Shown: positions 1,575 to 61,752, counted from the first letter of the stretch. The stretch is DNA of 64,000 bases from Clostridia bacterium (GCA_017448545.1 JAFSLH010000005.1:52627-116626), one strand, 5' to 3'. Notes: generated by a model not told the origin, from the letters alone. A program made the numbers and translations.

Positions 1575-3338
1575 ATGCAAGGAACGATTATCAAAGTTTC
1601 CGGGCCCTTAATCGTTGCAGGCGGCATGGCGGACGTCCAGATGTTCGACGTCGTTCGCGTGTCCGAAAAGCATCTGATCGGCGAGGTCATAGAGCTGCGC
1701 GGCGACAAAGCGTCCATTCAGGTTTATGAGGAAACCGGCGGCATCGGGCCGGGCGAGCCCGTTGTTTCGACCGGCGCGCCGCTGTCCGTTGAGCTTGCGC
1801 CGGGCCTGATCGAGTCGATTTACGACGGTATCCAGCGTCCGCTTTCCGAGATTCGCAAGCGCGCAGGCGACCGCATCACGCGCGGTATCGAGGTCAATGC
1901 GCTCGACCATGAAAAGTTATGGCACTTTGTCCCGACGGCAAAGGTCGGCGATGTGCTTGCGGCCGGCGATGTGCTCGGCACGGTGCAGGAGACCGAGGCG
2001 GTTCTCCATAAGATCATGGTTCCGCCGAATGTTTCCGGTACGCTGACCTGGATTTTCGAGGGCGACGCGAACATCGTAACCCCGATTGCCAAGCTGGAAA
2101 AGAACGGCAAGACGGTTGAACTGCCGATGCTGCAGAAGTGGCCGGTGCGCAGAGGCCGTCCGTATGCCGAAAAGCTCGCGCCGAATGAGCCGATGATTAC
2201 CGGTCAGCGCGTTATTGATACGCTGTTCCCGGTTTCCAAGGGCGGCGTCGCAGCAGTTCCCGGTCCGTTCGGCAGCGGCAAGACGGTCGTGCAGCATCAG
2301 CTTGCGAAGTGGGCCGATGCGGATATTATCGTTTACGTCGGCTGCGGCGAGCGCGGCAACGAGATGACGGACGTTCTGATGGAGTTCCCCGCGCTGAAGG
2401 ACCCGCGCACGGGACTGTCGCTGATGAAGCGTACCGTGCTGATCGCGAACACATCCGATATGCCGGTTGCGGCGCGTGAAGCGTCCATCTATACGGGCAT
2501 CACGATTGCGGAGTATTTCCGTGACATGGGATATAAAGTCGCTATCATGGCGGACTCGACGAGCCGTTGGGCAGAGGCGCTGCGCGAAATGAGCGGTCGT
2601 CTCGAAGAAATGCCCGGTGAAGAAGGATACCCTGCGTATCTGTCTTCCCGTCTCGCGGAGTTCTATGAGCGTGCCGGCGCGGTCAAGACGCTCGGCAGCG
2701 AGGGACGCACCGGCGCCGTTACGGCGATCGGCGCTGTTTCCCCTCCGGGCGGCGATATTTCCGAACCGGTTTCGCAGGCGACGCTGCGTATTGTAAAGGT
2801 GTATTGGGGCCTTTCGGCCAAGCTCGCGTATGCGCGTCACTTCCCGGCGATCGACTGGCTGCAGTCCTATTCGCTGTATCAGGATCGGCTGGCGCCGTGG
2901 TTCAATTCGAACGTGAATCCGCAGTGGTCGGCGCTGGTTGCAGAAACGATGCATCTTTTGCAGGTTGAAAGCGAACTGGACGAAATCGTCCGACTTGTCG
3001 GTATCGACGCGCTGTCGTTCCGCGATCGATTGACGCTCGAAACCGCGCGCAGCATTCGTGAGGACTATCTGCACCAGAACGCGTTCCACGAGGTTGACAC
3101 GTATACGTCGCCGAAGAAGCAGTATATGATGCTCGACGTGATTCTGCAGAACTACAAGAAGTCGCTGGAGGCGCTGGAGCATGACGCGTCGTTTGCCAAG
3201 CTGATGGCGATGCCGGTTCTGGAGCGCATCGGTCGTCTGAAATACGTTCCCGAAGATCGCGTGGAAGAGGAGTATAACGACATCCTGAAAGCGATTGCCG
3301 CCGAAACGGCTGCGCTGACGGAAGGAGGTGCGTTCTGA
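1575..3338 (+). CDS. ntpA: V-type ATP synthase catalytic subunit A
   Basis: Walker A motif GPFGSGKTV and strong A-subunit similarity throughout. I chose the ATG at 1575, which follows GGAGAGAGAG, over the upstream TTG at 1557. Confidence 0.95.
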
Positions 3339-4714
3339 TGCGGAAGGAATATCGTACGATTACCGAAGTCGTCGGCCCGCTGATGATGGTCAAGGACGTC
3401 GAAGGCGTCAAGTATGACGAACTCGTTGAGATCGAGCAGGCGGACGGCACAATCCGTCGCGGCAGAGTGCTGGAAATCAACGGCGACAAGGCGATGGTGC
3501 AGTTGTTTGAGGGCTCGCAGGGCCTTCGGATTTCGGACAGCAAAGCCCGCTTCTTGGGCCATTCGATCCAGCTTGCCGTTGCGCCGGACATGCTCGGCCG
3601 TATCTTCAACGGCATGGGCGAGCCGAAGGACGGCGGCCCCGCGCTGATTGCCGAGAAGCATCTTGACATCAACGGCGTCGCGATGAACCCCGCCGCGCGC
3701 GACTACCCCTCCGAGTTTATTCAGACCGGCGTTTCCGCAATCGACGGATTGAATACGCTGGTGCGCGGACAGAAGCTGCCCGTGTTCTCCGGCTCCGGTC
3801 TGCCGCATGCAAACCTTGCCGCGCAGATCGCGCGTCAGGCGCGCGTACTCGGCTCCGATGAGAAGTTCGCCGTCGTATTCGCCGCTGTCGGCATTACGTT
3901 CGAGGAAGCCGACTTCTTCATCAACGACTTCCGCAGAACCGGCGCGATCGAGCGAACCGTGACGTTTATCAACCTGGCAAACGACCCGGCGATCGAGCGT
4001 ATCAATACGCCGCGTATGGCGATCACCGCTGCGGAATATCTGGCATACGATCTCGGCATGCACGTGCTCGTTATCATCACGGACATCACGAATTACGCCG
4101 AGGCGCTGCGCGAAGTCTCTGCTGCACGTAAAGAGGTCCCGGGCCGCCGCGGTTATCCGGGCTATATGTACACCGATCTTGCGACGATGTATGAGCGCGC
4201 GGGCCGTATTCGCGGCAACAAGGGCTCGATCACGATGATCCCGATCCTGTCGATGCCGGAAGACGACGTAACGCATCCGATTCCCGACCTGACCGGCTAC
4301 ATCACCGAGGGCCAGATCATCCTGTCCCGCGAACTGTACCGCAAGGGCGTAACGCCCCCGATCAACGTCCTCCCGTCGCTGTCGCGTTTGAAGGATAAGG
4401 GCATCGGCAAGGGCAAAACGCGCGAGGATCATGCGGATACGATGAATCAGCTGTTTGCCGCCTATTCCCGCGGCAAGGACGCGAAGGAGCTGGCCGTTAT
4501 TCTCGGCGACGCGGCGTTGTCCGATACCGACAAGCTGTATGCAAAGTTTGCGGATGCGTTCGAAGCGGAATACGTTTCGCAGGGCTATTACACGAACCGT
4601 TCCATCGAAGAGACGCTCGATCTCGGCTGGAAGCTGCTTTCGATTCTGCCGAAGTCGGAGCTGAAGCGTATTCGCGACGAGTACATCGAAAAATACTATC
4701 CCGAGGAGGCGTAA
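3338..4714 (+). CDS. ntpB: V-type ATP synthase subunit B
   Basis: 458-aa ORF with typical B-subunit sequence ([21 protein letters not shown]). A TGATG overlap couples it to subunit A. Confidence 0.95.
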
Positions 4715-4717
4715 GCC

Positions 4718-5350
4718 GTGGCGCTGCAATACAAGCCCACCCGAATGGAGCTGTCCAACCTGAAAAAACGGCGGACGGTTGCCATTCGCGGTCACAAGAT
4801 GATGAAGGATAAGCGGGACGAGCTCGTTCGCCGCTTCATCGTCTATGCCCGGCGGAATCAGCAATTGCGGCGGGAGACGGAGGAGAAGCTCCAAAAGGCC
4901 ATGCAGAGCTTCGTGCTCGCACGCGCCATGATGTCGACGGCGGAGATCGAGGAAGCGCTCCTGTATCCGGCGCGCGCGATCGACCTCGATCAGTCGGTGC
5001 AGAACGTGCTTTCGATCCCGGTACCGAAGCTCGAAATGCAGGATCCGCAGGACGGATTCGTGTACCCGTACGGATTCGCTTCCACGGGCGCGGATCTCGA
5101 TACGGCGGTGCAGGCGCTTGCGGAGATTTTGCCGCTGATGCTGGAACTTGCCGAGGTCGAAAAAGCGACAAGCCGGCTCGCTGACGAGATTGAAAAAACG
5201 CGCCGCCGCGTCAATGCGCTCGAGTACGTCATGATTCCGCAGTTCGACGAGGCGATCCACGATATCCAGATGAAGCTCGAAGAAAACGAGCGCGGCAACA
5301 CGTCCCGCCTGATGAAGACGAAAGAAATGCTGGCAAAGGAAGCGGAATGA
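4718..5350 (+). CDS. ntpD: V-type ATP synthase subunit D
   Basis: 210-aa ORF with a GTG start 3 nt after subunit B. The N-terminus PTRMELSNLKKR and the coiled-coil C-terminus fit subunit D. Confidence 0.9.
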   Translation: MALQYKPTRMELSNLKKRRTVAIRGHKMMKDKRDELVRRFIVYARRNQQLRRETEEKLQKAMQSFVLARAMMSTAEIEEALLYPARAIDLDQSVQNVLSIPVPKLEMQDPQDGFVYPYGFASTGADLDTAVQALAEILPLMLELAEVEKATSRLADEIEKTRRRVNALEYVMIPQFDEAIHDIQMKLEENERGNTSRLMKTKEMLAKEAE

Positions 5351-6270
5351 ACCCGATTGCGCTTTGCAGGGAAAACGGGTTTGCGGAAGCGTTTATTCTT
5401 CCGGTTGCCCCATACGAAGATTGGACGCGCCATCGCAACGGTGGCGCGTTTCATTCCAATGCAGACGAGCTGAAGGACAACCCCGCCGACGCGTATCCGT
5501 GGGCGAATGCGTGCATGATCGCGGTCTGGGCATATGCGCCTTATGATGACACGTCGGTCGTTGCCGCCTATTATCCGGCAAGCAACGCCGCTTATCATGC
5601 GATGACGCGGATCGTCCGCATGCTGAACGAAGCGGGGATACAAGCCGAACGCGCAAAAACGCCGTTTCGCACGCAGTTGCTCACCGCGGGGATCGGCACG
5701 AAGATGGACAATCAGCTTTGGTACTACCCGCCCTACGGGACGTATACGCATCTGGAGGGCGTGATGCTGAAGCTGAACGAGCCGGTCGCGTTTACGCCGC
5801 CGCACGCGAACGAGCCGGTTTGCGACCATTGCGGACGGTGCGATAAGGTTTGCTACGGCGCGCTGAACGGCGGACGGTACGACTGGCACGACTGTATCCG
5901 CTCCTATCTCGAAACCGTTCCGATTCCGGCACGTTTTTTGCCCGAGCTGACTTGCTTTTTCGGCTGTCAGCGCTGTCAGGACGTCTGCCCCAAAAACCCG
6001 AAATCGTTCGTGCCGGTGCCGGATGGCGTGCGTGCAGCGCTCGATCCGGTTCGGATTCTGAACGGCGAGCTGCCAAAAGCGCTGCAGGTGCTCGGCACAA
6101 ATCGCAAAAAGCAGATTCTGCGGCAGGCGATCGTCTTGTGCGCGAACCACCGTCGGACGGATGCTCTGCCGACGCTGCTGCGGATGCGCGAAGCCGGGGA
6201 CAGCCCGTACAAATCCGAATTGGATTATGCGATTTTCCTCTTGCAAAAAGAGAAAAGTATGGTAAAATAG
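5347..6270 (+). CDS. QueG-like (epoxyqueuosine reductase family) 4Fe-4S dicluster protein
   Basis: Two cluster motifs, CDHCGRCDKVC and GCQRCQDVCPKNP, plus AGIGTKMDN and DCIRSYLE blocks resembling QueG. An ATGA overlap couples it to subunit D. It is shorter than canonical QueG. Confidence 0.65.
   Translation: MNPIALCRENGFAEAFILPVAPYEDWTRHRNGGAFHSNADELKDNPADAYPWANACMIAVWAYAPYDDTSVVAAYYPASNAAYHAMTRIVRMLNEAGIQAERAKTPFRTQLLTAGIGTKMDNQLWYYPPYGTYTHLEGVMLKLNEPVAFTPPHANEPVCDHCGRCDKVCYGALNGGRYDWHDCIRSYLETVPIPARFLPELTCFFGCQRCQDVCPKNPKSFVPVPDGVRAALDPVRILNGELPKALQVLGTNRKKQILRQAIVLCANHRRTDALPTLLRMREAGDSPYKSELDYAIFLLQKEKSMVK
6241..6268 (+). promoter_or_regulatory. Putative sigma-A promoter for the SRP RNA (TTGCAA-16-TGgTAAAAT)
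   Basis: TTGCAA at 6241-6246 and an extended -10 TGGTAAAAT at 6260-6268. It lies inside the last codons of the QueG-like CDS, about 7 nt upstream of the predicted RNA 5' end. Confidence 0.45.
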
Positions 6271-6274
6271 GTTT

Positions 6275-6545
6275 GTCGCACTAAGCGGGGAGTTAGCGGT
6301 GCCCTGTACTCGCAATCCGCTATAGCGAGGCTGAACTCCCATTCCGAGGCAAACGGTTGTGAGGTCGATCCCGGCACGGAGTGTTGATCGGCGGGTCCTG
6401 TGCAATCGTGCGCTGTGAACCGTGTCAGGTCCTGACGGAAGCAGCACTAAGCAGAAAGCGCGGTGTGCCGCGGGAAAGCCTGCAAGGAGCCACCGACCGG
6501 GCCACCACTCGGAGCCGAATGTCGAAGAATGGGTGTGCGATATTG
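6275..6545 (+). ncRNA. ffs: Signal recognition particle RNA, large Bacillus/Clostridium type (scRNA)
   Basis: Contains the domain IV core GTCAGGTCCTGACGGAAGCAGCAC. The 5' TGTCGCAC pairs with the 3' GTGTGCGA. An Alu-like 5' domain (GGGGAGTTAGCGGTGCC) is present, the length is about 270 nt, and no coding signal is apparent. The ends are approximate. Confidence 0.8.
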
Positions 6546-27859: not shown

Positions 27860-29934
27860 CGGCAAAAGAAAAGAAGCGTCGGCGCAGAAGGATACGCGTG
27901 ATCGTTGCGGGAGGGATCCTGCTGATCGGCGTCCTTGTATTTGCGGCTTCGCTTTGGCTTTCAATTGCATATTTCGGGATTCGACCGTTTGTTGCAGCCG
28001 AGTACGGGCAGGGTTTGCCGAATCCTTCGGCGTTCGGCGATCGCGTCGTCGGCTATGCGGAAGCGTCGGAACCGCAAAAGGGCGTGAACCGGGTTCGCTT
28101 ACGGCTCGAAAACGGCGGCGAACGCGTTGCTTGGCTGACGGTACGCGATACGACCGCGCCGACTGCCGAACCGGCGGAGCGCACGATTTCCACGCTCGTT
28201 ACGCTGAAACCGACGGACCTGATCGAGCATCTTGCGGACGCGGACCTGGTGGGCGTGTCGTTTGCCTCTGTTCCGCCGTTTGGCACGGTCGGCGACTATT
28301 CCGTGGAGATTCTGCTGGAGGACGTTTCCAATAACAAAACTTCCTTGGAATCGACGCTGCATATTCGCGTCGTCAACGAAGGCGTGACGATTGAAGCAGG
28401 GGAGGATGCACCGTCTGTGGAATCGTTTCTGATCGATGACTATGCGGTGGAACGTGTTGCCGGACTGGATGCGCAAACGATCCGAACGCCCGGCAAGCAT
28501 TCGGTATTCGTTACGATCGACGGGGAAACGTATGAAACGTTTCTGACCGTAACAGACACGGTTGCGCCGACGGCGGAAACGCAAACGCTGTTCCTGAAAC
28601 CGGGAACGAACCCCGATCCGGCAGACTTCTTACGCAACGTTTCGGACGGCAGCGACGTTTCGGCTGCGTTCCTGCAAGCGCCCGATCCGGATGTACGCAC
28701 GTTTCAGACGGTGGAAATCCGCCTGACCGACGCGGCGGGGAACACGTTCGACTGTACCGCGTCGCTGCTTTTTACCGATATTCTGCCGATTACGATCGAA
28801 GCAAGGAACAGCGTACTGACAATCGAGGACTGCTTCCCGGACGGCGTGCCGGAAGGCGCTGCACTGCTGACTTCCTTTATTACGAACCGGCTCGGCACGT
28901 TTTCCGTATCGGTTGCAGTGGACGGGACGGAGGAGATGGCGATTATCGAAGTCGTCGATACGACCGCGCCGGTGCTGTACGTTCGCAAGCAGAAGTACTA
29001 TACGAACCATCCGCTTCCGACCGAAGAGCTTTATACGGCAGTGGTGGACGGAACGGAAACGACCGTGACGGCGTCGGAGATCGATTGGTCGTTCGAGGGC
29101 GTGCAGACCGTTACGCTGACGGCAGTCGATGCAGCAGGGAACGAATCGGAGGATTCGTTTGAACTGACACTTGTACGGGATGCAGTCGCGCCGACTCTGT
29201 ACGGCGTGCGCGATCGGAACGCCTACGTCGGCGAACCGGTGGCATACCTTGCGGAAGTTTTTGCAACGGATGCGCTGGACGGGGAGATTGCGGTAACCGT
29301 CGACGCTTCGGCAGTGGACCCCAACCGCGCGGGAACGTACACCGTGACGTATACAGCGACGGACCTGTCCGGGAATGCGACGGTCAAAAGCTGCCGGTTT
29401 ACGTTTACGAATCCAACCGTGTCGGAGGAAGAACTGCGCGCGCTGACGACGGAGATTGTTGCGCGCGTTACGACGCCGGACATGACGAAAACCGAAAATC
29501 TGGTCGCCCTGTACCGGTACGTCTATGACCGGATTACGTACAACGGCAAATCGGACAAAACGGACTGGCGCAAGGAAGCCGTCAACGGCATCCGGCTCGG
29601 CGTGGGCGACTGCTTTACGTATTACGCCACGCTGCGCGCGCTGCTGGATGAAACGGATATTGAATACATGAGCGTAACGCGCAAGGGCGGCGCAACGCGG
29701 CATTTCTGGCTGCTGGTCAACGTCGGTACCGGATGGTATCATCTCGACGCGAACCACAACGCCACGGCACACTGGGAATGCTTTATGTGGACAAACGCAC
29801 AATGCGCTTCGCCGGCCGGATTCTGGACATTTGACCAGTCGCTTTATCCGGCGGTTGCAACGGAACCGTTCGTTGCAAGCGCGGTGATTGCCGCCGAAAA
29901 GGCAGAGAGAAACGAATCCATCGAAACGGAATGA
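27856..29934 (+). CDS. Membrane-anchored Ig-repeat protein with C-terminal transglutaminase-like core
   Basis: An ATGA overlap couples it to dat. It has an N-terminal TM segment and repeated modules each introduced by DT(T/V)AP(T/V). The C-terminal Cys-His-Asp core is GVGDCFTYYA and HFWLLVNVGTGWYHLDA. Confidence 0.75.
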   Translation: MTAKEKKRRRRRIRVIVAGGILLIGVLVFAASLWLSIAYFGIRPFVAAEYGQGLPNPSAFGDRVVGYAEASEPQKGVNRVRLRLENGGERVAWLTVRDTTAPTAEPAERTISTLVTLKPTDLIEHLADADLVGVSFASVPPFGTVGDYSVEILLEDVSNNKTSLESTLHIRVVNEGVTIEAGEDAPSVESFLIDDYAVERVAGLDAQTIRTPGKHSVFVTIDGETYETFLTVTDTVAPTAETQTLFLKPGTNPDPADFLRNVSDGSDVSAAFLQAPDPDVRTFQTVEIRLTDAAGNTFDCTASLLFTDILPITIEARNSVLTIEDCFPDGVPEGAALLTSFITNRLGTFSVSVAVDGTEEMAIIEVVDTTAPVLYVRKQKYYTNHPLPTEELYTAVVDGTETTVTASEIDWSFEGVQTVTLTAVDAAGNESEDSFELTLVRDAVAPTLYGVRDRNAYVGEPVAYLAEVFATDALDGEIAVTVDASAVDPNRAGTYTVTYTATDLSGNATVKSCRFTFTNPTVSEEELRALTTEIVARVTTPDMTKTENLVALYRYVYDRITYNGKSDKTDWRKEAVNGIRLGVGDCFTYYATLRALLDETDIEYMSVTRKGGATRHFWLLVNVGTGWYHLDANHNATAHWECFMWTNAQCASPAGFWTFDQSLYPAVATEPFVASAVIAAEKAERNESIETE

Positions 29935-32024
29935 GTCAGAACAGCAAACGACAACCGAATCGGAAATCCTCCGCGCTCGCCCGCTTTTTCGGCGGGCTGA
30001 TCCTCGCGCTCGGCATTCTGATCGGCGGTTCGCTTTTGCTGATCGGCATTGCATACTTCGGGCTGAAGCCGGTCGTCGTTTGGGAATACGGAACGGGTAT
30101 TCCTGAGATTTCCGTGTTCGCACCGGGTAAAGCCGCAAGCTATGTGGATACGCTGCCGCAAAAGCCGGAAATCGGTCTGCACACCGTTCGGATCGAAGTG
30201 AACGGGTGGGAACGGCCTGTCTGGCTCTATGTGGAGGACACGACGGCGCCGACCGCCACGGCGCGGGAACAGACCGTTTCGACCAAAACGGTTTTGAAGC
30301 CGACGGAGCTGATCGACCATCTGACGGACGCCGACAAGGTTTGGGTTGACTTTTTGGAGATTCCGCCGTTCGGAACCGTCGGCGACTTTCCGGTCACGAT
30401 TGTTTTGCAGGACGTTTCCGGCAACCGTTCCGAAGTGGAATCCGCGCTGCACGTCCGGCGCGTCAAGGATACCGGATTAACGGTGGAAGCGGGAGACGAA
30501 GCGCCGCAGGCGGACGATTTTCTGACCGATGCGTACGGTGCGACGCTTTTGACTGTGATCGACGAAACCATGCTGCGGACGCCGGGAACCTATCCGATTG
30601 AGATTGCGGCGGACGGCGTTACGGTTCAGTCGACTCTGACCGTTGTGGATACCAAAGCGCCCGACGTCGAAACGCACATGCTGTTCCGCGAACCGGGGGC
30701 AACGGTTTTGCCGGAGGAATTTTGCGAGCGGATCGAGGATGCGTGCGACGTTACGGTCGCATATCTCGTGGCCCCGGACCCGGACGAACGCTCGTTCCAA
30801 CAGGTGACAATCCGTGTAACGGACGCGGCGGGCAACGTCACAGACGCGACGGCAGGGCTTCTGTTCACGCACGCGACGCCGGTCGTTGTGGAGGCGCGCA
30901 ATACGTCGCTGACGGCAGAGGAATGTCTCGAAGATGCGGAATACACCGGAGCCGTTCTGGTGCGCGACTTCGTGCCGGACACAACCGGCTTGTTTGCGGT
31001 GACACTGTATGTGGACGGTGCGCCGGAGATTGCGCTCGTCGAAGTGCAGGACACGGTTGCGCCCGTCGTGCAGACGAAGCCGTTTCAATGGTATCTCGAT
31101 CATCCGATCGACGCTGCGCGGCTTTGTACCGTCACCGATGCAACGGCGACGGAAGCGTTTTATGTGAGCGAAGTGGACTGGCGCGCTGCGAATCAGGAAG
31201 TCACGATTCTCGTGCGCGACGCGGGCGGAAACGAGACCGAAGCTACGCTTTCGCTTTCGCTGATCGCAGACCTGGAGCCCCCGGCGCTGTACGGCGTGCA
31301 GGATCGGTATTTCTATCTCGACGAGCCGTATGCGTACCTGACGGGCGTCACGGCGGTAGACAATGCGGACGGACTCGTTGAAGTGACAGTGGACACAAGC
31401 GCCGTTACGCCGAACAAGACCGGTTCGTATCGCGTGACGTACTTTGCGAGCGATTCGGTCGGAAACAGCATTTCGCGCATTGTGACCATTACGGTCAAAA
31501 AATCCACGACCAATACGAAAAAACTCGACAAGTACGTGAAAAAGGTTGCGGATCGCATCTTTACGGACAAGATGTCGCTGGCGGACAAGGTAACGGCGAT
31601 CTATGAATATGTCTTTGACAACATCCATTACGTCGCAAAGTCGGACAAGACGGATTGGAAAAAGGAGGCGCTGCGCGGTTTGACGACAGGCAAGGGCGAT
31701 TGCTTCACCGCGAACTGCGTTGCGCGCGCGCTTCTGGAATCTGTCGGCGCGGAAACGTATCCGATCCGGCGGTATAAGGGCAACGGCAATCACTACTGGC
31801 TGTTGGTCAACATCGGGACCGGGTGGTACCACTTCGATGCACACAATTCCTGGGAGCACGGCTATCAGTGCTGCATGTGGACGGATGCGCAATGCTCGGT
31901 GATGAGCGCCTATTGGCGGTACGACAAGACGACGTGCCCGGCGGTCGCGACGGAGCCGTTCAGCAAATCTGCGGCACAGGCCGTGGAGAAAGAATGGCTG
32001 CAATCCCATCAAAACGGAGAATAA
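29931..32024 (+). CDS. Paralogous membrane-anchored Ig-repeat / transglutaminase-like protein
   Basis: An ATGA overlap couples it to the upstream paralog, and the architecture is the same. The core reads GKGDCFTANC and HYWLLVNIGTGWYHFDA. Confidence 0.75.
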   Translation: MSQNSKRQPNRKSSALARFFGGLILALGILIGGSLLLIGIAYFGLKPVVVWEYGTGIPEISVFAPGKAASYVDTLPQKPEIGLHTVRIEVNGWERPVWLYVEDTTAPTATAREQTVSTKTVLKPTELIDHLTDADKVWVDFLEIPPFGTVGDFPVTIVLQDVSGNRSEVESALHVRRVKDTGLTVEAGDEAPQADDFLTDAYGATLLTVIDETMLRTPGTYPIEIAADGVTVQSTLTVVDTKAPDVETHMLFREPGATVLPEEFCERIEDACDVTVAYLVAPDPDERSFQQVTIRVTDAAGNVTDATAGLLFTHATPVVVEARNTSLTAEECLEDAEYTGAVLVRDFVPDTTGLFAVTLYVDGAPEIALVEVQDTVAPVVQTKPFQWYLDHPIDAARLCTVTDATATEAFYVSEVDWRAANQEVTILVRDAGGNETEATLSLSLIADLEPPALYGVQDRYFYLDEPYAYLTGVTAVDNADGLVEVTVDTSAVTPNKTGSYRVTYFASDSVGNSISRIVTITVKKSTTNTKKLDKYVKKVADRIFTDKMSLADKVTAIYEYVFDNIHYVAKSDKTDWKKEALRGLTTGKGDCFTANCVARALLESVGAETYPIRRYKGNGNHYWLLVNIGTGWYHFDAHNSWEHGYQCCMWTDAQCSVMSAYWRYDKTTCPAVATEPFSKSAAQAVEKEWLQSHQNGE

Positions 32025-41575: not shown

Positions 41576-43381
41576 ATGAAGAGAATCATTGCATTGCTTC
41601 TTGTGCTGTGCCTGGCAGTATCGCTCTTTGCGTGCACAACCAGCACGCCGGCCAACACGGGAACGACGACAACGACCGACACGACGAGCACGACGACGAA
41701 CTCCGGTTCCCAGTCCGCAAACGCCGGTACGACGGACAACAGCGGCAAGACCGATACGACCGAAACGACCGTGGCTGAAAAGTTTGTGGTCAATGCCTGC
41801 ATTGCGTCTGAACCTGAGACGATTGATCCGTCCACCATCAGCTCCGTAGACGGCTCGACCTACACGCAGCATCAGTTTGAGAACCTGATGAAGTATCAGA
41901 TGACCAACGATAACCCGGCGGGCGACCCGAATATGAAGTCCACTGAGATCGTGCTCGGTCAGGCCGCAGGCTATACCGTGTCCGATGACCTCACCGTCTA
42001 CACCTTCACGCTTCGTGACGACATTTTCTGGTCGGACGGCGTGCCGGTCAAGGCGCAGGATTGGGTCTATTCCTGGCAGCGCCTCGTCGATCCCGCGACC
42101 GCGTCTGACTACGGCTACTTCCTGGATAACATCGTGCTGAACGCGTATGATATCTATGAAGAAAACACCAAGGACAAGAGCGAGCTCGGCATCAAGGCGC
42201 TTGACGACAAGACGCTGGAGATCACCCTTGAAGCGCCCTGTGCGTACTTCCTCGAGATGTGCGCCTTCGCGTCCCTCGTCCCGCTCCGTCAGGATGTTGT
42301 GGAAGGCAGCGACAACTGGACCGATCCGGCGAACATCGTCGTCAACGGCGCGTACAAGCTCACCGAGTGGGTACACGACAGCTACCTGAAGATGGAAAAG
42401 AACGAAAAGTACTATGATTACGATAACCTCGGACCGGATGAGATCATCTGGTGGCTGAGCGACAGCGAGACCGCGATCTACTCCGCATATCAGTCCGGCG
42501 AGTATCAGTTCATCGAGAGCTTCCCGAGCGATCTGACCGAGACGCTGCAGGCTTCCGGCGATTGCTACATCAATCCGTACGTCGGCACCTATTATCTGTA
42601 TCTGAACTGCAGCAAGGTCACTGATTGGCGCGTCCGCGCTGCGATGGTCCTCTCCGTTGATCGTGAGAACATCGTAGACAACGTCACCCAGCAGAATCAG
42701 AGCCCGGCAACCGGTTTCGTTGCTTCCGGTATCCTCGATTCCACCGGTGCGGACTTCGCGTTCGGCGTTTCCGAGCTCGGTGCAATCTACAACACGCTTT
42801 CGACCATGTATCCGGATGCTGACCTCAGCACCTATGCGGGTCGCTGCGAGCTTGCACAGCAGCTCTATCAGGCGGCGGTTGACGACGGATCCTGGGATCC
42901 CAACACCACCGTTGTTTACAACTTCAACACGTCCGAAACCCACAAGGCGATCGCAGAAGCCTGCGGTTCCGACTGGGTGACGGTTCTCGGTCTGAAGATC
43001 TCGCTGGAGAACCAGGAATGGGCGACCTACACCAACGGACTCGGCGAGCACACGTTCGGCGTTGCGCGTCTCGGCTGGATCGCGGACTACAATGACCCGG
43101 TCACTTACCTTGAGCTGCTGGTCACCGGCAATTCTTACAACTACGGTCTGTTCAGCAATGAGGCCTACGACGCGAAAATCAACAGCGCGAAGGCGATGCT
43201 TGCGGGTGCAGAGCGTGACGCCCTGCTGTACGAAGCGGAAGAGCTGCTGTTCGGCGAAGGCGGCTTCCCGGTTTGCCCGATCTACTACTACACCAACCCC
43301 TACTGCGCACAGGGCCTGACCAATGTCGCTTACACGACGATGGGTTACTTCTTCTTCCAGTATGCGCAGCCCGCTGCGTAA
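41576..43381 (+). CDS. oppA: Peptide ABC transporter substrate-binding lipoprotein
   Basis: Lipobox LFACTT, a Thr-rich linker and a family 5 SBP body of 601 aa. An AAGGAGG RBS precedes the start. Confidence 0.9.
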   Translation: MKRIIALLLVLCLAVSLFACTTSTPANTGTTTTTDTTSTTTNSGSQSANAGTTDNSGKTDTTETTVAEKFVVNACIASEPETIDPSTISSVDGSTYTQHQFENLMKYQMTNDNPAGDPNMKSTEIVLGQAAGYTVSDDLTVYTFTLRDDIFWSDGVPVKAQDWVYSWQRLVDPATASDYGYFLDNIVLNAYDIYEENTKDKSELGIKALDDKTLEITLEAPCAYFLEMCAFASLVPLRQDVVEGSDNWTDPANIVVNGAYKLTEWVHDSYLKMEKNEKYYDYDNLGPDEIIWWLSDSETAIYSAYQSGEYQFIESFPSDLTETLQASGDCYINPYVGTYYLYLNCSKVTDWRVRAAMVLSVDRENIVDNVTQQNQSPATGFVASGILDSTGADFAFGVSELGAIYNTLSTMYPDADLSTYAGRCELAQQLYQAAVDDGSWDPNTTVVYNFNTSETHKAIAEACGSDWVTVLGLKISLENQEWATYTNGLGEHTFGVARLGWIADYNDPVTYLELLVTGNSYNYGLFSNEAYDAKINSAKAMLAGAERDALLYEAEELLFGEGGFPVCPIYYYTNPYCAQGLTNVAYTTMGYFFFQYAQPAA

Positions 43382-43395
43382 GCAACGGTAAGTAC

Positions 43396-43428
43396 CTGCT
43401 GCAAAGGCGTCAGGCTGTTTGCGGCAGA
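43396..43428 (+). repeat. Partial copy (5' arm only) of the intergenic module seen at 44706-44980 and 60519-60849
   Basis: CTGCTGCAAAGGCGTCAGGCTGTTTGCGGCAGA compares with GGCTGTTGCAAAAGGCGTCAGACCATTTGCGGCATA. As in the full copies, it lies shortly after a stop codon. Confidence 0.5.
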
Positions 43429-43521
43429 ACAGGAATGAAACCGAAAGACGGGGCTGTCTCATGCGTGAGGCAGCCTCTTCGCCGTCTGTGGCCTTTTCCG
43501 CTCGAAAGGGTTCTTAATACA

Positions 43522-43560
43522 ACGCGCCCTGCCGGATGGCAGGGCGTTGTTCGTTCTGTT
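43522..43560. terminator. Hairpin terminator between convergent oppA and the permease gene
   Basis: CGCGCCCTGCC-GGAT-GGCAGGGCG followed by a T-rich tract. Confidence 0.55.
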
Positions 43561-43561
43561 T

Positions 43562-44701
43562 TCAGAAGAAATTCCAATGCGAAAGCAGGAAGCCGGGAAT
43601 CACGACGATCAGGAAGAACGCCCAGCTGATCAGCGTAAAGACTTTGATGAACGGCTTTCCGTTGTTCGGATATTCGCGGACATAGATGCGATAGTTGATC
43701 ACCGAAGCGAGCGAGCCGATCAAAGAGCAGAGCCCGGCAGTGTCCGCGCCGTAAATCAATCCGGCAAAGTTCTCCGTGAACGGATACAGCACGATCGTTG
43801 CGGGAACGTTGGAAATAATCTGACTGAGGCCGATCGCCCACCAGTATTCGTACCCGGCGACGGCCTTTTTCAGCCAACCGGCAATCGCTTCGTTGGCGGC
43901 AATCGATGAGGAAAACACGAAGAAGCAGAAGAACGTAACGATCAGCACATAGTCCACTTTGAGAAGCAGTTTCCGGTCGAAAATCAGGATCGCTGCCAAA
44001 ACGATTCCGACGACGATATACCAATACGCGGTGCGCGTCACGATGCACGCGATGATCAGCGCAAACAGCGTCAGATAGACGATGCGCTTTGTGCGGCCTT
44101 CCTTTTCCCAGGGAACGCTTTCCGGCGCGGCGTCGATCGTTTCGCGCGGGTCTTTCCGATACAGGAACAGGATAAACACGATCAAAAGCAGGGCGGAAAT
44201 CGCCGCAAGCGGCAGCATGTGCAGCATAAAGTGCCATGCACTGACGTTTGCCTGTCCGTACAGAAACAGGTTCTGCGGGCTTCCGAACGGCATCAGAAGC
44301 GAGCCGCGGATTGCTGCAATATTCTCAAACGTCAAAACGGGCAGAATGTATTGCTCCTTGTTTCCGGCGCGGAAGAGCAGAATCGTTACCGGTACAAAAA
44401 TGATCAGCGAAACGTCGTTCGTGACGAACATCGACATAAAGAATACGCCGAACACCAGAAACAGTGTCATCAGCGTCATGCGGCGCAAGCCGGACGCAAG
44501 CCGGATCAGCGGCTGCAGAATCCGTTCCTGCTTGAAGCCCTCCAGCACACAGAGCATCATCAGCAGCGTTCCGAGCGTGCGCCAGTCGATATCGGCAAGC
44601 AGCGCCGCAGACGGCGGCGTGATCAGCAGGGACAGCAGCGCTGCCAGGACCGAGACGGTGAGCATCGGCTCCCGTTTCAAGAATGAAAGTACTTTTTTCA
44701 T
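43562..44701 (-). CDS. Anion permease (SLC13 / ArsB-NhaD / citrate transporter-like superfamily)
   Basis: About 11 TM segments and 379 aa. The ATG at 44701 sits 6 nt after a TATAAT box. The longer ORF starting at 44767 would begin inside a non-coding repeat. Confidence 0.7.
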   Translation of the reverse strand: MKKVLSFLKREPMLTVSVLAALLSLLITPPSAALLADIDWRTLGTLLMMLCVLEGFKQERILQPLIRLASGLRRMTLMTLFLVFGVFFMSMFVTNDVSLIIFVPVTILLFRAGNKEQYILPVLTFENIAAIRGSLLMPFGSPQNLFLYGQANVSAWHFMLHMLPLAAISALLLIVFILFLYRKDPRETIDAAPESVPWEKEGRTKRIVYLTLFALIIACIVTRTAYWYIVVGIVLAAILIFDRKLLLKVDYVLIVTFFCFFVFSSSIAANEAIAGWLKKAVAGYEYWWAIGLSQIISNVPATIVLYPFTENFAGLIYGADTAGLCSLIGSLASVINYRIYVREYPNNGKPFIKVFTLISWAFFLIVVIPGFLLSHWNFF

Positions 44702-44705
44702 AGGC

Positions 44706-44980
44706 GCATTATACATCGGAACCGATCGAAAGACAAGCTTTTTTGGATGAAAAGGACGTTGTCTCAAAACTCTCTAAGGTGCTATAAGGGGCTGTTGATA
44801 AGGCAGGCAGAATTCGCGTTTTCGTCCCGAAGGCTATACTGACGCTATGCCGAGGGCGAAAACGCGGATAGTTTTCGGCAAATAATCAAAAGAATGTGCG
44901 AAATTGGCGCACATTCTTCCTACCAGTATTCTTTTTTCCGGTCTGCCGAAAACGGTCTGGCGCCTTTTGCGACAGCCACC
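44706..44980 (-). repeat. Structured intergenic module, copy 1 (terminator hairpin, branched stems, outward promoter)
   Basis: Collinear with 60519-60849 when read in the direction of the flanking genes. Shared blocks are GGCTGTYGCAAAAGGCGYCAGACC, TGATTATWTGCCGMAAAYTATCCGCGTTTTCGCCC, GGGACGAAAACGCGAATTCTGMCTGCCTTATCAACAGCCCCTTA, AGAGTTTTGAGACAAC and TTTCGATCGG..TATAATGC. Confidence 0.75.
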
Positions 44981-45001: not shown

Positions 45002-46324
45002 TTACTTCTCCTTCTTCATGCCGCCGAGTACCAGGTTGGCGACGATGCCGAGGATCAGCGCGCACGCAACGGTTGTGAGGTTGACGTTGCCGAAACTGAC
45101 AGTCAAACCGCCGACGCCCGCGACCAGGATGACAGAGACCACAAACAGGTTGCGGTTGTCGTTCAGATTGACCTGCTGAATCATCTTCAGACCGGAGACT
45201 GCGATGAAGCCGTACAGCGTGATGCAGACGCCGCCCATGACGCAGCCGGGGATCGTGGCGAGGAATGTTGCGAACGGTCCGATGAAGCTGACGATGATGG
45301 CCATGATCGCGGTGTAGAGGATCGTGATGACCGAAGCGTTGCCGGAAATCGCGACGCAGGCGATGGACTCGCCGTAGGTGGTGTTGCAGGCGCCGCCGAA
45401 GATTGCACCTGCAAAGGAGCCGATACCGTCGCCGAGCAGCGTGCGGTGCAGGCCCGGATCTTTGGTCAGGTCGACGCCGAGGATGGAGCTGAGGTTCTTA
45501 TGGTCGGCAAGGTGCTCCGCAAAGACGACGAAGGCAACCGGGACATACGCGACGATGATCGTGACGACATATTCGAGAGTCAGATCGCCGAAGCCCTTGA
45601 ACGCGGTCAGGAACGTGAAGTCCGGGATCCATTGGATGTTCTGGAACTTGGCGAAGTCGATGACGACCAGCTCCGCATTGCCGGTGACATTGCCGATGAC
45701 GGTGAAGATCGAAGCGACGATGTAGCCCGCGACGATACCGACGACGAACGGGATCAGCTTCAGCATCTTCTTGCCGTAGACGGAGGAGAGGATCGTAGCA
45801 AACAGAGTCACGAGACCGCAGATGAGGCAGACGTAGGTGTTGGCCGTCATGGAACCGCCGGATGCGCCGGTCAGGTCGTTGATAGCGTTGCTCGCAAGCG
45901 AAAGACCGATGATTGCGACAGTCGGCCCAATGATGATTGCGGGCATCAGCTTGTTGATCCAGTTAACGCCGGCGAACTTCACGACAAGCGCGATTACGAC
46001 GTATACAAGACCTGCGAAGCAGGCGCCCATGATCAAACCGAGGTAGCCGAGCTGCACCGAAGCGGCGCCGCCGAAGGCTGCAAACATCGAACCGAGAAAT
46101 GCGAACGAGCTGCCGAGGAAGACCGGGCTGCGGAACTTGGTGAAGAGCAGGTAGACGAGCGTGCCGATACCTGCGCCGAACAGGGCGGCCGTTGCGCTCA
46201 TGCCGTTGCCGACGATGGCCGGAACCGCGATCGTTGCCGCCATGATGGCAAGCAGCTGCTGCAGCGCGAACAGAATCGTTTGACCGAATTTCGGTTTGTC
46301 CTTAATGTTGTAAACCAGATTCAT
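45002..46324 (-). CDS. pyrP: Uracil permease (NCS2 family)
   Basis: FGQTILFALQQLLAIMAATIAVP and 12-14 TM segments. I chose the second ATG (46324), preceded by GGAGG. Its position downstream of pyrR also fits pyrP. Confidence 0.88.
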   Translation of the reverse strand: MNLVYNIKDKPKFGQTILFALQQLLAIMAATIAVPAIVGNGMSATAALFGAGIGTLVYLLFTKFRSPVFLGSSFAFLGSMFAAFGGAASVQLGYLGLIMGACFAGLVYVVIALVVKFAGVNWINKLMPAIIIGPTVAIIGLSLASNAINDLTGASGGSMTANTYVCLICGLVTLFATILSSVYGKKMLKLIPFVVGIVAGYIVASIFTVIGNVTGNAELVVIDFAKFQNIQWIPDFTFLTAFKGFGDLTLEYVVTIIVAYVPVAFVVFAEHLADHKNLSSILGVDLTKDPGLHRTLLGDGIGSFAGAIFGGACNTTYGESIACVAISGNASVITILYTAIMAIIVSFIGPFATFLATIPGCVMGGVCITLYGFIAVSGLKMIQQVNLNDNRNLFVVSVILVAGVGGLTVSFGNVNLTTVACALILGIVANLVLGGMKKEK

Positions 46325-46390
46325 AAGTACCTCCATTGACTTATTATGTCTTGCTTGTATGCTATCGGCACGATTGCCGGATAGTCCTCT

Positions 46391-58591: not shown

Positions 58592-59176
58592 ATGACTCTG
58601 ATACCGATGGTCGTTGAGCAGTCCGCACACGGCGAGCGCTCGTACGACATTTATTCCCGCCTTTTGAAGGATCGCATTATCTTTCTGGGCGGTCCGATTG
58701 ACGATGATGTTGCGAATCTTGTCATCGCGCAGCTTCTGTTCCTTGAGGCGGAAGATCCGGACAAGGATATTTTCCTCTACATCAACAGCCCCGGCGGTTC
58801 CGTTTCGGCGGGTCTCGCCATCTACGATACGATGCAGTACATCCGCTGCGAGGTGCAGACGATCTGCGTCGGACTCGCTGCAAGCATGGGCGCATTCCTG
58901 CTTGCCGCCGGCGCCAAAGGGAAGCGCCGCGCACTGCAAAATGCCGAGATTATGATTCACCAGCCGAGCGGCGGCGCATCCGGTCAGGCGACCGAGATTC
59001 GCATTCATGCCGAGCAGATTCTGAAAATTCGCGACCGGTTGAATCAGATTCTGGCCCAAAGAACCGGTCAGCCCCTTTCCGTGATCGAAGCGGACACGGA
59101 GCGCGACAACTTCATGACGGCGGAAGAAGCGAAGACCTACGGATTGGTCGACGAAGTCATTGTGCCGAGGAGATGA
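58592..59176 (+). CDS. clpP: ATP-dependent Clp protease proteolytic subunit
   Basis: [29 protein letters not shown] (Ser nucleophile) and MIHQP. Confidence 0.97.
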
Positions 59177-59180
59177 TTGC

Positions 59181-60500
59181 ATGCCCACAAAGGATAGAGA
59201 TAATTTCGATAAAGTGTGTTGCAGCTTTTGCGGCAAGCGGCGCGGTCAGGTTCGAAAGCTGATTGCTGGACCTAACGCCTACATCTGCAACGAGTGCGTC
59301 GAATTGTGCCGGGAACTGGTGCGGGAGGATATGCGGTTTGCAGAACCGACCGAAGAGTTCGACGCGCCGACCGTTGCGGATATCCCGAAGCCGGCGCAGA
59401 TTGTCGCCGCGCTGGACGACTATGTGATCGGACAGTATGCCGCAAAGCGCGCGCTGTCGGTCGCCGTTTACAATCATTATAAGCGCGTACGCCTGCAGAA
59501 GAAGGACGACGACGTCGAGCTGCAAAAGAGCAATATCATCATGCTCGGGCCGACCGGCTGCGGAAAGACGCTGCTGGCGCAAACGCTTGCCAAGGTGCTT
59601 GACGTGCCGTTTGCCGTTGCGGACGCGACGGCCCTGACCGAAGCCGGCTATGTCGGCGACGACGTGGAAAACATTCTGCTCAAGCTGATCCAGGCTGCGG
59701 ACTTCGATATTCATCGGGCGGAGCGCGGGATCGTCTATATCGACGAGATCGACAAAATCGCGCGCAAGGGCGAAAACGTTTCGATTACACGCGACGTTTC
59801 GGGCGAAGGCGTGCAGCAGGCACTTCTGAAGATTCTCGAAGGCACGGTCGCAAATGTCCCGCCGCAGGGCGGACGGAAGCATCCGCAGCAGGAATGTCTG
59901 CAGATCGACACGACGAACATTCTGTTCATCGTCGGCGGCGCGTTCACCGGCATCGACAAGATCATCGAACGCCGCACCGGCAATAAGATGATGGGCTTCG
60001 GCGCAGACATCAAGTCGACCGAAGAGAAGGATATCGGATCCGTTCTGCGCGGCATTCTGCCCGAAGACCTGTTGAAGTTCGGTCTGATTCCGGAATTCGT
60101 CGGCCGCGTCCCGGTAATCGTCACGCTCGACAGTCTGGATGAAACAGCGCTGATCAAGATTCTGACGGAGCCGAAGAACGCCCTGACGCGCCAGTATCAG
60201 CGCCTGTTCGAGATGGACGGCGTGAATCTGGTTGTGACCGACGACGCGCTGCACGAGGTCGCGAAGAAAGCAATCGAGCGCAAGACCGGCGCGAGAGGTC
60301 TGCGCGCCATCATGGAAGACGTCATGCTGGATATCATGTATGACATTCCCTCGATGGACGGCGTGAAAACTTGCGAGATCACGGGCGATACAATCCGGAA
60401 GTCCGGCCCGCCGCGGTTTATCCGCAGCGATTCGGTACAGCCGGCGGCGCTTCCCGCGACGCGCAAACGCAAAACGACACAGGCAAAAAAAGCGGAATAA
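59181..60500 (+). CDS. clpX: ATP-dependent Clp protease ATP-binding subunit ClpX
   Basis: Zinc ribbon CSFCGK-CNEC, Walker A GPTGCGKT and IGFG-like GFGA. The ATG at 59181 follows GAGGAG. Confidence 0.97.
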
Positions 60501-60518: not shown

Positions 60519-60849
60519 AGGGCTGTTGCAAAAGGCGTCAGACCATTTGCGGCATATTGGAATTGTTTTAACTTGTATGTAGAAAAGGCGGAAAAAATCC
60601 ACCTTTTCTCTGATTATATGCCGCAAATTATCCGCGTTTTCGCCCTACAAAATTCCGTGCGCTCGCAGTGCGAGATGCAGCACGGGATTTTGATATCCGC
60701 TGTCAGTACAGCCTTCGGGACGAAAACGCGAATTCTGACTGCCTTATCAACAGCCCCTTACAACGCTCAAAGAGTTTTGAGACAACACCTTTGCTTTTGA
60801 AAATTGCATAGTTTTGCTTTACTTTTTCGATCGGATTCGGTATAATGCA
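60519..60849 (+). repeat. Structured intergenic module, copy 2 (with an extra nested hairpin)
   Basis: It has the same ordered blocks as 44706-44980 read on the minus strand. It also carries a ~46-nt hairpin insertion (AAAATTCCGTGC...GCACGGGATTTT) in one loop, and ends in TTTCGATCGGATTCGGTATAATGC. Confidence 0.75.
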
Positions 60850-60855
60850 GAAAAA

Positions 60856-61020
60856 CAGAGTAGGCAGGCGCGCGTCGGCAAAAGCCGCAGTGCCGCACGG
60901 ACGGGGAGTTGCCGTGCGGACGAAGAAGCGCAAATCTCGCGATGCGTCTGCCGCATCCCGCTGTGACATCATACGGACCGTTTGCCTCCTTGTGTTGCCA
61001 TAGCCGGCAAAGAAGGAGGT
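60856..61020 (+). promoter_or_regulatory. THF (tetrahydrofolate) riboswitch with SD-sequestering expression platform
   Basis: The aptamer at 60856-60966 carries AGAGTAG, GCGCGT, GGGGAGT, ACGAAG and GCATCCCGCTGTG, collinear with the THF-I aptamer as I recall it from Eubacterium siraeum. GCCTCCTT (60984-60991) can pair with the SD sequence AAGGAGGT (61013-61020). It lies upstream of a folT-like gene. Confidence 0.8.
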
Positions 61021-61026
61021 TTTGCT

Positions 61027-61752
61027 ATGGAGCAGAAAACGTATCAGCCGCTGGATCAAAGGGCGCTGTTTTCAACGCCGTTTCATCGGGACTATTGGCG
61101 ACTGGCGGCGAGGGAGGTAAAGTCCCTTCGCGTTTTGATTCTCGCCGCGCTGCTGACTGCGCTTCGAATTGCAATCAAGTCCGTCAAAATACCGCTCGCA
61201 GCCGATCTTTACATCACATTCGGATTTATGGTCAATGCGGCCGGCTCGATGATCTACGGGCCGATCGTCGCAATCCTTGCTTCTGCCGTCAGCGATACGG
61301 TCGGCGCGCTGCTGTTTCCGACAGGAACATATTTTCTCCCGTTTCTGTTGGAAGAGATCGCAGGCGGTGTGATTTTCGCGCTGTTTTATTATCGGGCGCG
61401 GCTTACGACGCAGCGGGTTTTGCTCGGACGGCTTGCCGTAACGGTCGTTTGCAACCTGATCCTGAATCCGCTGTTCATGATGTGGTATTACGCGCTGTAT
61501 ATGGGAAAGGCATACACGTTCATGACGTGGCCGCGCCTTGCAAAGAATATCGCGCTGTTCCCGGTGCAGACCGTAATTCTGGTTCTGCTGTTCCGTTTGC
61601 TGCTCCCGATTACAAACCGTCTGAAAGTGACCTATGCGCCTGCCGACGAATTGAAGATTCGCAAAAAAGACGTGGTTTCGTTGATTGTGCTTACCGTCGG
61701 CGCAGCTGCAATTGTCATATTGTATTTCTTCTTTGTCTATAAGAATAAGTGA
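61027..61752 (+). CDS. folT: Folate-family ECF transporter S component
   Basis: Six-TM S-component pattern, length 241 aa, and a THF riboswitch directly upstream. The ATG follows GAAGGAGG. Confidence 0.8.
   Translation: MEQKTYQPLDQRALFSTPFHRDYWRLAAREVKSLRVLILAALLTALRIAIKSVKIPLAADLYITFGFMVNAAGSMIYGPIVAILASAVSDTVGALLFPTGTYFLPFLLEEIAGGVIFALFYYRARLTTQRVLLGRLAVTVVCNLILNPLFMMWYYALYMGKAYTFMTWPRLAKNIALFPVQTVILVLLFRLLLPITNRLKVTYAPADELKIRKKDVVSLIVLTVGAAAIVILYFFFVYKNK

Follow-up and report, generated by a model that had tools for sequence, protein, structure and literature searches.

We analyzed a 64,000-nt stretch of DNA from a Clostridia bacterium (GCA_017448545.1, JAFSLH010000005.1:52627-116626; hereafter the window, at its full length) and focused on the intergenic region between clpX and a folT-like gene preceded by a tetrahydrofolate (THF) riboswitch. 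This region holds one of two window copies of a structured repeat. A preliminary description of positions 60519-60849 had taken the repeat as a portable terminator-plus-promoter cassette that insulates the upstream gene and drives the downstream one. On balance, our analysis favors a different interpretation, in which positions 60520-60789 are a lineage-restricted, dispersed, non-coding repeat that replaces terminators, and positions 60818-60846 are the native promoter of the THF riboswitch-folT transcript, lying outside the element. The interval described earlier does hold a complete copy of the repeat, and its last 60 nt are flanking DNA.

The ends of the element were defined by an occupied and an empty allele at a third locus (L036 and L035, respectively), which we reached by looking up the 78-aa protein encoded upstream of a further full copy, L018. 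The flanks of the two alleles were alike at 342 of 349 aligned positions (98%). The empty allele reads ...TAATGCAG-CACAGCAAAACGCTGTG-CCGCGGATTATAAATG, the flank after the hairpin being CCGCGGATT, whereas in the occupied allele TAATGCAG is followed directly by the element (GGGTTGTTGC...GAGACAGCCC) and then by CCGCGGATTATAAATG, with the same right flank, CCGCGGATT. The unit at this locus is 222 nt long and replaces a 17-nt native hairpin, the terminator between two convergent genes. Its right end has the form GAGACARC(N)CC, GAGACAGCCC in L036. No duplicated bases were found in the comparison of the two alleles; instead, 17 nt of the target were missing. Nor were strictly terminal inverted repeats found: GGGYTGTYGC, at the left end, pairs with CAACAGCCCC, which is set back by about 30 nt from the right end, and nothing at the left end pairs with GAGACARCNCC, the sequence of the right end. 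Relatives with a flanking protein of 88% identity carry the empty form too, and we therefore take it as the ancestral state. These results indicate that the element is gained or lost as a whole unit.

We then compared both window loci with those of a sister species (L026 and L027, from one metagenome sample), which were reached via homologues of ClpX and of the permease encoded downstream of the other window copy. The sister proteins are 88% (ClpX) and 87% (permease) identical to those of the window, and the gene orders clpX-folT and pyrR-uraA-permease are kept at the two loci. The element was absent from both sister loci in searches with nhmmer and with a covariance model of its 5' half, and the sister intergenic regions measure 258 and 113 nt, as compared with 526 and 300 nt in the window. 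Behind clpX, the sister carries an ordinary terminator, GAAGCTGTTGC-ggatgcgaaa-GCAACGGCTTC, followed by a run of T's, then TTTACA-17-TATAAT, and then the riboswitch. After uraA it has AAAGAACCTTTCGC-ggcaat-GCGAAAGGTTCTTT, then TTGCTT-17-TATACT and a 20-nt leader. The terminator slot is thus occupied by the element at three independent loci. Both alleles were recovered at one of the loci only, and there the native hairpin is missing where the element is present.

In the window, copy 2 of the repeat (GGGCTGTTGC...GAGACAACACC; 60520-60789, + strand, 270 nt; nhmmer E = 1e-73), whose ends follow from the L036/L035 pair, starts 20 nt past the stop codon (60498-60500) of clpX (59160-60500, + strand). 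Copy 1 (44977-44754, - strand, 224 nt) starts 24 nt past the stop codon of a uracil/xanthine permease gene, uraA (45002-46336, - strand), and lies upstream of a CitMHS-family permease gene (43562-44701, - strand). The two copies are inverted relative to each other, and each lies between co-directional genes in the orientation of those genes, as the preliminary description had proposed. Its claim of a two-copy repeat was likewise borne out, every shared sequence it named being present and above chance expectation. A repeat search of the window yielded 59 nt at 97% identity (44785-44843 and 60702-60760) and 36 nt at 92% identity (44853-44888 and 60611-60646), and pairwise alignment of the copies gave 79% identity over aligned columns; between the two units as delimited here (60520-60789 and 44977-44754), identity is 78%. 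The 16-mer AGAGTTTTGAGACAAC occurs exactly twice, and a 26-nt pattern taken from the 5' arm had 3 matches, as against 0.00 expected. A small protein encoded by the repeat was rejected, because the open frames in the core differ between the copies and a 46-nt insertion in copy 2 shifts every frame.

To derive a consensus fold, we applied RNAalifold to the four full copies (copy 1, copy 2, L018 and L036). In this model the element is a long imperfect palindrome (helices P1-P3) enclosing a terminator-like hairpin, P3a, together with a side helix, P4, and a conserved 3' tail. In copy 2 (all coordinates on the + strand), the 5' arm (60520-60557) comprises the 5' strands of P1 (60520-60528), P2 (60531-60542) and P3 (60545-60557), and can by itself form the hairpin UGUUGCAAA(AGGCGUCAGACCA)UUUGCGGCA. 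The helices are GGGCUGUUG / CAACAGCCC for P1, AAAGGCGUCAGA / UCUGACUGCCUU for P2 and AUUUGCGGCAUAU / AUAUGCCGCAAAU for P3, their 3' strands being placed by the consensus fold at 60748-60757, 60734-60745 and 60616-60628, respectively. P4 (60633-60730) is a 13-bp helix, CGCGUUUUCGCCC / GGG-A-CGAAAACGCG, with a variable apical part; its 13 pairs do not vary in any copy, and it lies in the 97%-identical core. The 3' tail (60758-60789), with the sequence AGAGTTTTGAGAC identical in all four copies, contains a weak hairpin, P5 (60766-60781), and closes with the right end GAGACAACACC, at the junction seen in L036. The central hairpin P3a is flanked by runs of A and U. It reads AGAAAAGGCGG-AAAAAAU-CCACCUUUUCU followed by CUGAUUAU in copy 2 (60581-60609), GGAAGAAUGUGCG-CCAAUUU-CGCACAUUCUUUU followed by GAUUAUUUGC in copy 1 (44920-44888, - strand; 13 pairs), and AAAAAGGCG-CAAAAA-CGCCUUUUUUCUU in L018 and L036.

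Copy 2 exceeds copy 1 by 31 + 15 = 46 aligned columns. In copy 1, L018 and L036 the corresponding site is CGGCRTAGC; in copy 2 it is replaced by 55 nt, ACAAAATTCCGTGC...GATATCCGCT (60647-60701, + strand; 46 nt net), of which bases 60649-60691 fold as a nested palindromic hairpin. The self-complementary surplus of about 46 nt had been recognized earlier and is real; its site is the tip of P4, not the loop of P3. That apical loops of the repeat tolerate hairpin insertions is likewise supported by this insert. No further copy of the insert hairpin was found in any sequence retrieved, which ruled it out as a separate mini-repeat.

Across the 65 pairs of the consensus, 96.2% of the cells in the four full copies were paired. 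Both-sided changes occurred in 8 pairs, compared with 3.2 +/- 1.4 in shuffles (0/500 reached 8), and in only 0-2 pairs when the partner strand was slid. The compensatory pairs fall in P1 (one, with the series C-G, U.G, U-A), P3 (three) and P3a (four). Between loci, identity was 53-62% in the junction and P3a, 88-96% in P4 and 85-100% in the 3' arm.

A few further observations concern these helices. In L006, a strain variant of copy 2, P3a has CCGCC in place of CCACC (about 3847-3855, corresponding to about 60597-60605 of the window), which repairs a G.A mismatch, and its loop has one A fewer. In L018, copy 1 and copy 2, the bases just past GAGACAA (CGCCUUUUUGC, CACCUUUGC, CGUCCUUUU) appeared by eye to be complementary to GCAAAAGGCG of the 5' arm, the sites being 1463-1473 with 1259-1268 in L018, and 60783-60795 and 44760-44750 in the window. 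A possible pairing of CGCCUUUUUGC with GCAAAAGGCG would be an alternative to P2; it was in none of the minimum-energy folds. The stem of the sister clpX terminator, GCTGTTGC...GCAACGGC (6964-7020 of L026), resembles P1 of copy 2, GGGCTGTTGC...CAACAGCCCC (60520-60528 / 60748-60757). This likeness could be due to chance, or could hint at the origin or the target of the element.

We next considered P3a as a terminator. The claim that the repeat carries a terminator-like hairpin agrees with the strict terminator scan, which flagged P3a of copy 1 (44920-44888). P3a of copy 2, whose U run lies partly within the stem, was not flagged. In either copy, no terminator candidate other than P3a lies between the upstream gene and the promoter that follows, and homologous P3a hairpins with compensatory changes are present in every full copy. 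P3a therefore belongs to the element, and the idea that it is the native terminator of each locus was discarded on the same grounds. By its position and predicted shape, P3a would terminate the upstream gene, here clpX. If it does end the upstream transcript, the element would be harmless in the terminator slot, which would also explain its orientation. The rest of the palindrome might be recognized, as folded DNA, by a copying process; in RNA made by read-through it could serve as a long duplex, either undergoing cleavage or blocking exonucleases.

To search for further copies, we scanned with exact words from the 97%-identical core. Among species-representative genomes, an 18-mer gave 10 matches, nine of which were chance matches in unrelated phyla and one of which was real (L015, in the rumen 'Clostridiales' metagenome-assembled genome RUG11401). 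A 20-mer gave one match in the metagenomes of the Joint Genome Institute (JGI), namely L018, the third full copy, which lies behind the gene for the unrelated 78-aa protein. Solo 5' arms, hairpins with the loop AGGCGYCAGRCYR, were found three times by profile searches. One is in the window (43396-43427, + strand; nhmmer E = 6e-9 with the arm profile, supported by a pattern match and by its fold), 14 nt past the stop codon of a gene (41576-43381) for a family-5 solute-binding protein; the 180-nt intergenic region in which it lies (43382-43561), between convergent genes, folds into four hairpins. The other two are in L015 (5628-5588 and 4295-4254, - strand), with a 3' half of the element nearby on the same strand (2740-2525).

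The three L015 pieces were further inspected. They lie on one strand within 3.2 kb (2525-5630, - strand), each just after a stop codon, and consist of a short form with P3-like and P4-like helices, a lone arm and the 3' half. Between them lie genes that encode one NTP_transf_5 and one HTH_26 protein and a lipoprotein. A recombinase within the 2.8-kb interval was looked for and discarded as a candidate, as only these NTP_transf_5 and HTH_26 proteins and the unassigned lipoprotein are encoded there.

Seven pieces were assessed, namely the full copies at three loci, the three solo arms and a 3' half. All of them begin 1-24 nt past a stop codon and are co-oriented with the upstream gene, so that the orientation noted for the window copies holds in 7/7 cases among these pieces. 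GC skew is positive across the entire window, so that copies 1 and 2 face opposite ways relative to replication but the same way relative to transcription. No function is shared by the upstream genes, which encode ClpX, UraA, the solute-binding protein, the 78-aa protein and a nucleotidyltransferase.

Outside these loci, no copy was found with nhmmer and the 5'-half covariance model in about 125 kb from more distant relatives (L019-L025, with ClpX 86-87% identical), in L028 (with the permease 79% identical) or in the sister loci L026 and L027. Plasmids and phages gave no match with blastn in distant mode, and viral contigs gave none in three pattern scans. Within the data searched, the repeat does not extend beyond one narrow lineage of Clostridia, uncultured and from gut or rumen.

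The alternative that survives best is that the element is a functional structured RNA under folding selection, for example a 3'-untranslated region (UTR) element or a read-through switch with a closed P1-P4 fold, serving as an RNase III site, an exonuclease barrier or a protein-binding platform between transcription units. The compensatory changes in P1, P3 and P3a speak for it, as do the very stable folds: copy 2 has a minimum free energy (MFE) of -114 kcal/mol (z = -9.75), and the other folds have z = -4.8 and -5.9. It would also fit the strict orientation with respect to transcription, independent of the direction of replication, the position of the arm always just inside the 3' UTR, and the arrangement of an invariant core surrounded by peripheral hairpins that differ in length, which many RNA families show. 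However, the antisense strand folds as well as the sense strand or slightly better (antisense versus sense MFE of -84.7 vs -81.1, -118.5 vs -113.9 and -90.2 vs -87.2 kcal/mol). Nothing thus marks the sense RNA as selected, and the data are silent on whether RNA or folded DNA is the selected form. Moreover, a terminator-like hairpin in mid-element would end most transcripts before the 3' half, the upstream genes share no function, and the element is absent from orthologous sites in the sister species and in conspecific strains and has no Rfam match. In a search with Rfam 15, only the signal recognition particle (SRP) RNA and the THF riboswitch were matched in the window at the gathering score, and at E <= 10 nothing credible was matched on either copy; no tRNA or transfer-messenger RNA was found in the window. 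We consider a functional structured RNA unlikely.

Going beyond terminator replacement as such, the element might home to intrinsic terminators, by strand-specific recognition and substitution of itself, with its own terminator, for the native one, leaving no target duplication and using a copying mechanism not described so far. Such homing would account for the position after stop codons, for the co-orientation regardless of replication and for the disappearance of the native hairpin. One candidate mechanism would be recombination between single strands folded into hairpins. We regard this extension as speculative and assign it a somewhat lower probability than the structured-RNA reading.

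We then focused on the promoter, the second half of the cassette that had been proposed. Downstream of both copies lies a shared block, TTTCGATCGG..TATAATGC (TTTCGATCGGATTCGGTATAATGC at 60825-60848, + strand; TTTCGATCGGTTCCGATGTATAATGC at 44731-44706, - strand), in which 27 of 35 positions are identical and whose local alignment score was reached by 0/2000 shuffles. Both blocks were picked up as promoters by the scan, with 10 of 12 sigma-70 consensus positions matched, and each is rightly positioned for the gene that follows: TTTACT-17-TATAAT for folT (60818-60846, + strand) and TTGTCT-17-TATAAT for the CitMHS-family permease gene (44736-44708, - strand). The earlier observations that the TATAAT at 60841-60846 is well placed to start the THF riboswitch-folT transcript, and that the TATAAT of copy 1 (44713-44708) ends 6 nt before the permease ATG at 44701, were confirmed. 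In addition, the copy 1 locus lacks the 20-nt leader of the sister, as if its promoter region had been remodeled. These features speak for a repeat that carries its own promoter.

By contrast, the junction-defined right end places both promoters outside the repeat, 28 nt from copy 2 and 17 nt from copy 1; the shared blocks start 35 and 22 nt past that end, respectively, and the spacers between element and block differ in length and sequence. The block does not follow the right end GAGACAGCCC of L036 and is lacking in the L015 piece, which lies between convergent genes. L018 also lacks the TTTCGATCGG block; another promoter-like sequence, TTGCCG-17-TATACT, was seen there by eye about 70 nt further on. 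The block therefore does not travel with the repeat. The sister, which has no element, has promoters at the same positions (TTTACA-17-TATAAT before the THF riboswitch and TTGCTT-17-TATACT before the permease gene), indicating that those of the window are positional orthologues. In windows of 35-36 nt, the promoter at copy 1 matches its orthologue at 25/35 positions and that at copy 2 matches its own at 23/35, whereas the two sister promoters match each other at 16/36. A sigma-70 promoter is thus not an intrinsic part of the repeat. Of the cassette, the terminator-like half belongs to the repeat and the promoter half does not, and we consider the cassette in its full form improbable. In the terminator-replacement reading, transcription would terminate and then re-initiate at the clpX-folT junction, with only the terminator half contributed by the repeat. 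The extra likeness of the two window promoters could have arisen by ectopic conversion seeded by the adjacent repeat, by one longer duplication or by chance.

The transcript that would start at the folT promoter would open with the THF riboswitch aptamer (60854-60965, + strand; RF01831, 73.1 bits against a threshold of 36, full model), two positions upstream of the start at 60856 given earlier. Its assignment to the THF class follows from the match above the gathering score and from its position upstream of the gene for an energy-coupling factor (ECF) S component, the folT-like gene at 61027-61752 (+ strand; Pfam ECF-ribofla_trS and ECF_trnsprt).

At copy 1, the listed permease homologues are mostly 379-380 aa long, which supports ATG 44701 as the start codon. 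This ATG lies 6 nt past the TATAAT, and no Shine-Dalgarno sequence was seen (44699-44716, - strand); the window gene lacks the 20-nt sister leader, which contains GAGG. Judging from this spacing, the permease mRNA may be leaderless if the TATAAT box is used. The database gene call, P0121 (384 aa), starts at another ATG, inside the -10 box.

The copies also recombine with one another. The L018 copy (1251-1472) is alike to the L036 copy (1472-1693) over columns 1-213, at 98-100% across segments, and its 3' arm and tail match window copy 2 at 100% and 97%; its right flank is a different gene. Two copies thus recombined near the invariant core, and gene order was changed. Least probable of all is that the element works purely as DNA, with P4 as an operator or the palindrome as a recombination hot spot or attachment site: the perfect 13-bp inverted repeat of P4, invariant in all copies, the switch of source in L018 just after the invariant core, and the L015 5' and 3' pieces, which are separated on one strand by 2.8 kb that hold three unrelated genes and a further arm, would suit such a site, but no recombinase gene lies beside any copy, fixed orientation to transcription and a position after stop codons are not expected of it, and dispersed repeats exchange without a dedicated site.

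Several points weigh against the interpretation we favor, a dispersed repeat that replaces terminators next to a native promoter. The sample is a small one, of four complete copies plus four partial pieces, and the exact-word scans gave one further real locus each. Neither a transposase nor a recombinase was found beside any copy or in the loci retrieved, and target duplication and strictly terminal inverted repeats are lacking; mobility is read from presence/absence and dispersal alone, a pattern to which homologous import of an occupied allele would look alike. Termination at P3a is deduced from the shape of the hairpin, and the strict scan flags it in copy 1 only. The 3' half, beyond the putative terminator, is the most conserved part of the element, which the terminator idea by itself leaves unexplained. 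Finally, the greater likeness of the window blocks (27/35) than of the sister pair (16/36) leaves some room for a built-in promoter.

We compared the element with known classes of small repeats. Like the miniature transposable elements with inverted repeats (MITEs), it is small (222-270 nt), non-coding, present in several copies (at least three full-copy loci plus partial pieces) and polymorphic for presence/absence. Inverted repeats at its extreme ends and a target-site duplication were not found, and we therefore file it outside the MITEs. Elements derived from the insertion sequences (ISs) of the IS200/IS605 family (PATEs) likewise lack terminal inverted repeats and target duplication, negative features that are common to other elements as well. 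The present element differs from them in having no single 4-5-nt target (the left flanks are ...GCAG, ...CCAG and ...GGGT, at two or three sites) and no replication-tied strand bias, as the opposite placement of copies 1 and 2 shows.

The nearest known systems are pneumococcal. SPRITE, in the passages of PMC3049150 that treat it, is a terminator-like small repeat that is enriched near the 3' ends of coding sequences, follows coding bias and has been proposed to be a co-opted terminator. Our element is similarly a small, dispersed, non-coding repeat with the shape of a terminator. SPRITE, however, is a single 18-bp duplex with a U-rich tract, whereas our element is 222-270 nt long, with four or five helices around a terminator hairpin; it is unlike SPRITE in sequence, and its host belongs to a different order of Firmicutes. 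Replacement of a native terminator, seen here directly, is not mentioned for SPRITE in those passages. BOX of Streptococcus pneumoniae is composed of boxA, boxB and boxC, the outer modules of which pair as a long stem and the inner one of which is absent or expanded; it is intergenic, occurs in many copies and can influence neighboring genes, as described in the BOX passages of PMC3049150. Our element is likewise modular and intergenic, with paired outer parts and a variable inner part. The terminal inverted repeats of BOX resemble those of ISSpn2; in our element, the right arm of the palindrome is set back from the right end by about 30 nt, and a related IS is not known. The two have no sequence similarity.

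Other repeats share single features with it. In Correia elements (CREE/NEMIS), the terminal inverted repeats are 26 bp long, and there is a TA target duplication as well as an integration host factor (IHF) site. According to the relevant part of PMC2649163, these elements of Neisseria can create promoters at their ends, RNase III binds or cleaves their transcripts, and the expression of adjacent genes is altered. They are thus a known case of the promoter-bearing repeat proposed in the preliminary description. Correia promoters are formed by the end of the element, whereas here the promoter is external and pre-exists in relatives, and no target duplication was found.

With a size of about 1.9 kb, group IIC introns are ribozyme retroelements; they insert past a terminator, which stays intact. 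As stated in the pertinent passages of PMC1702495, these mobile introns lie close behind intrinsic terminator motifs and are oriented with transcription, which indicates that terminator hairpins can serve as insertion targets. Our element has no intron domains and no Rfam intron match, and the hairpin is replaced.

The ERIC/IRU repeats of enterobacteria, imperfect palindromes that measure about 127 nt, occur in intergenic regions that are transcribed, and longer variants of them arose by insertions at fixed internal sites. ERIC can destabilize transcripts depending on its orientation, according to the ERIC passages of PMC3049150. It comes from a different phylum and has no sequence similarity to our element. 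No ERIC element is known to carry or replace a terminator. Taken together, these comparisons suggest, from sequence features, that the element is a structured intergenic repeat of a broad class, nearest to the pneumococcal repeats BOX and SPRITE, and that it does not belong to any named family.

Two other features of the window were recorded. A bacterial large SRP RNA (RF01854) is located at 6276-6540 (+ strand; 195 bits, full model), and several direct repeats spaced about 2090 nt apart, with 71-78% identity, occupy about 28200-31350 (+ strand). The latter suggest an array of duplicated genes or domains.

The boundaries of transcription units can be rewired by small dispersed repeats, which have hardly been charted in uncultured gut and rumen Clostridia. 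Here, between strains of one species, a native terminator has been exchanged for a repeat with a terminator-like hairpin, and copies of the repeat have served as crossover points that change gene order, as in L018. The element also breaks metagenome assemblies (six contigs end inside it), and its surroundings hold a lesson for annotation, in that a promoter and a riboswitch beside a repeat need not belong to it. If terminator targeting is true, it would represent an insertion specificity of a new kind, as well as a source in nature from which compact terminator parts could be taken.

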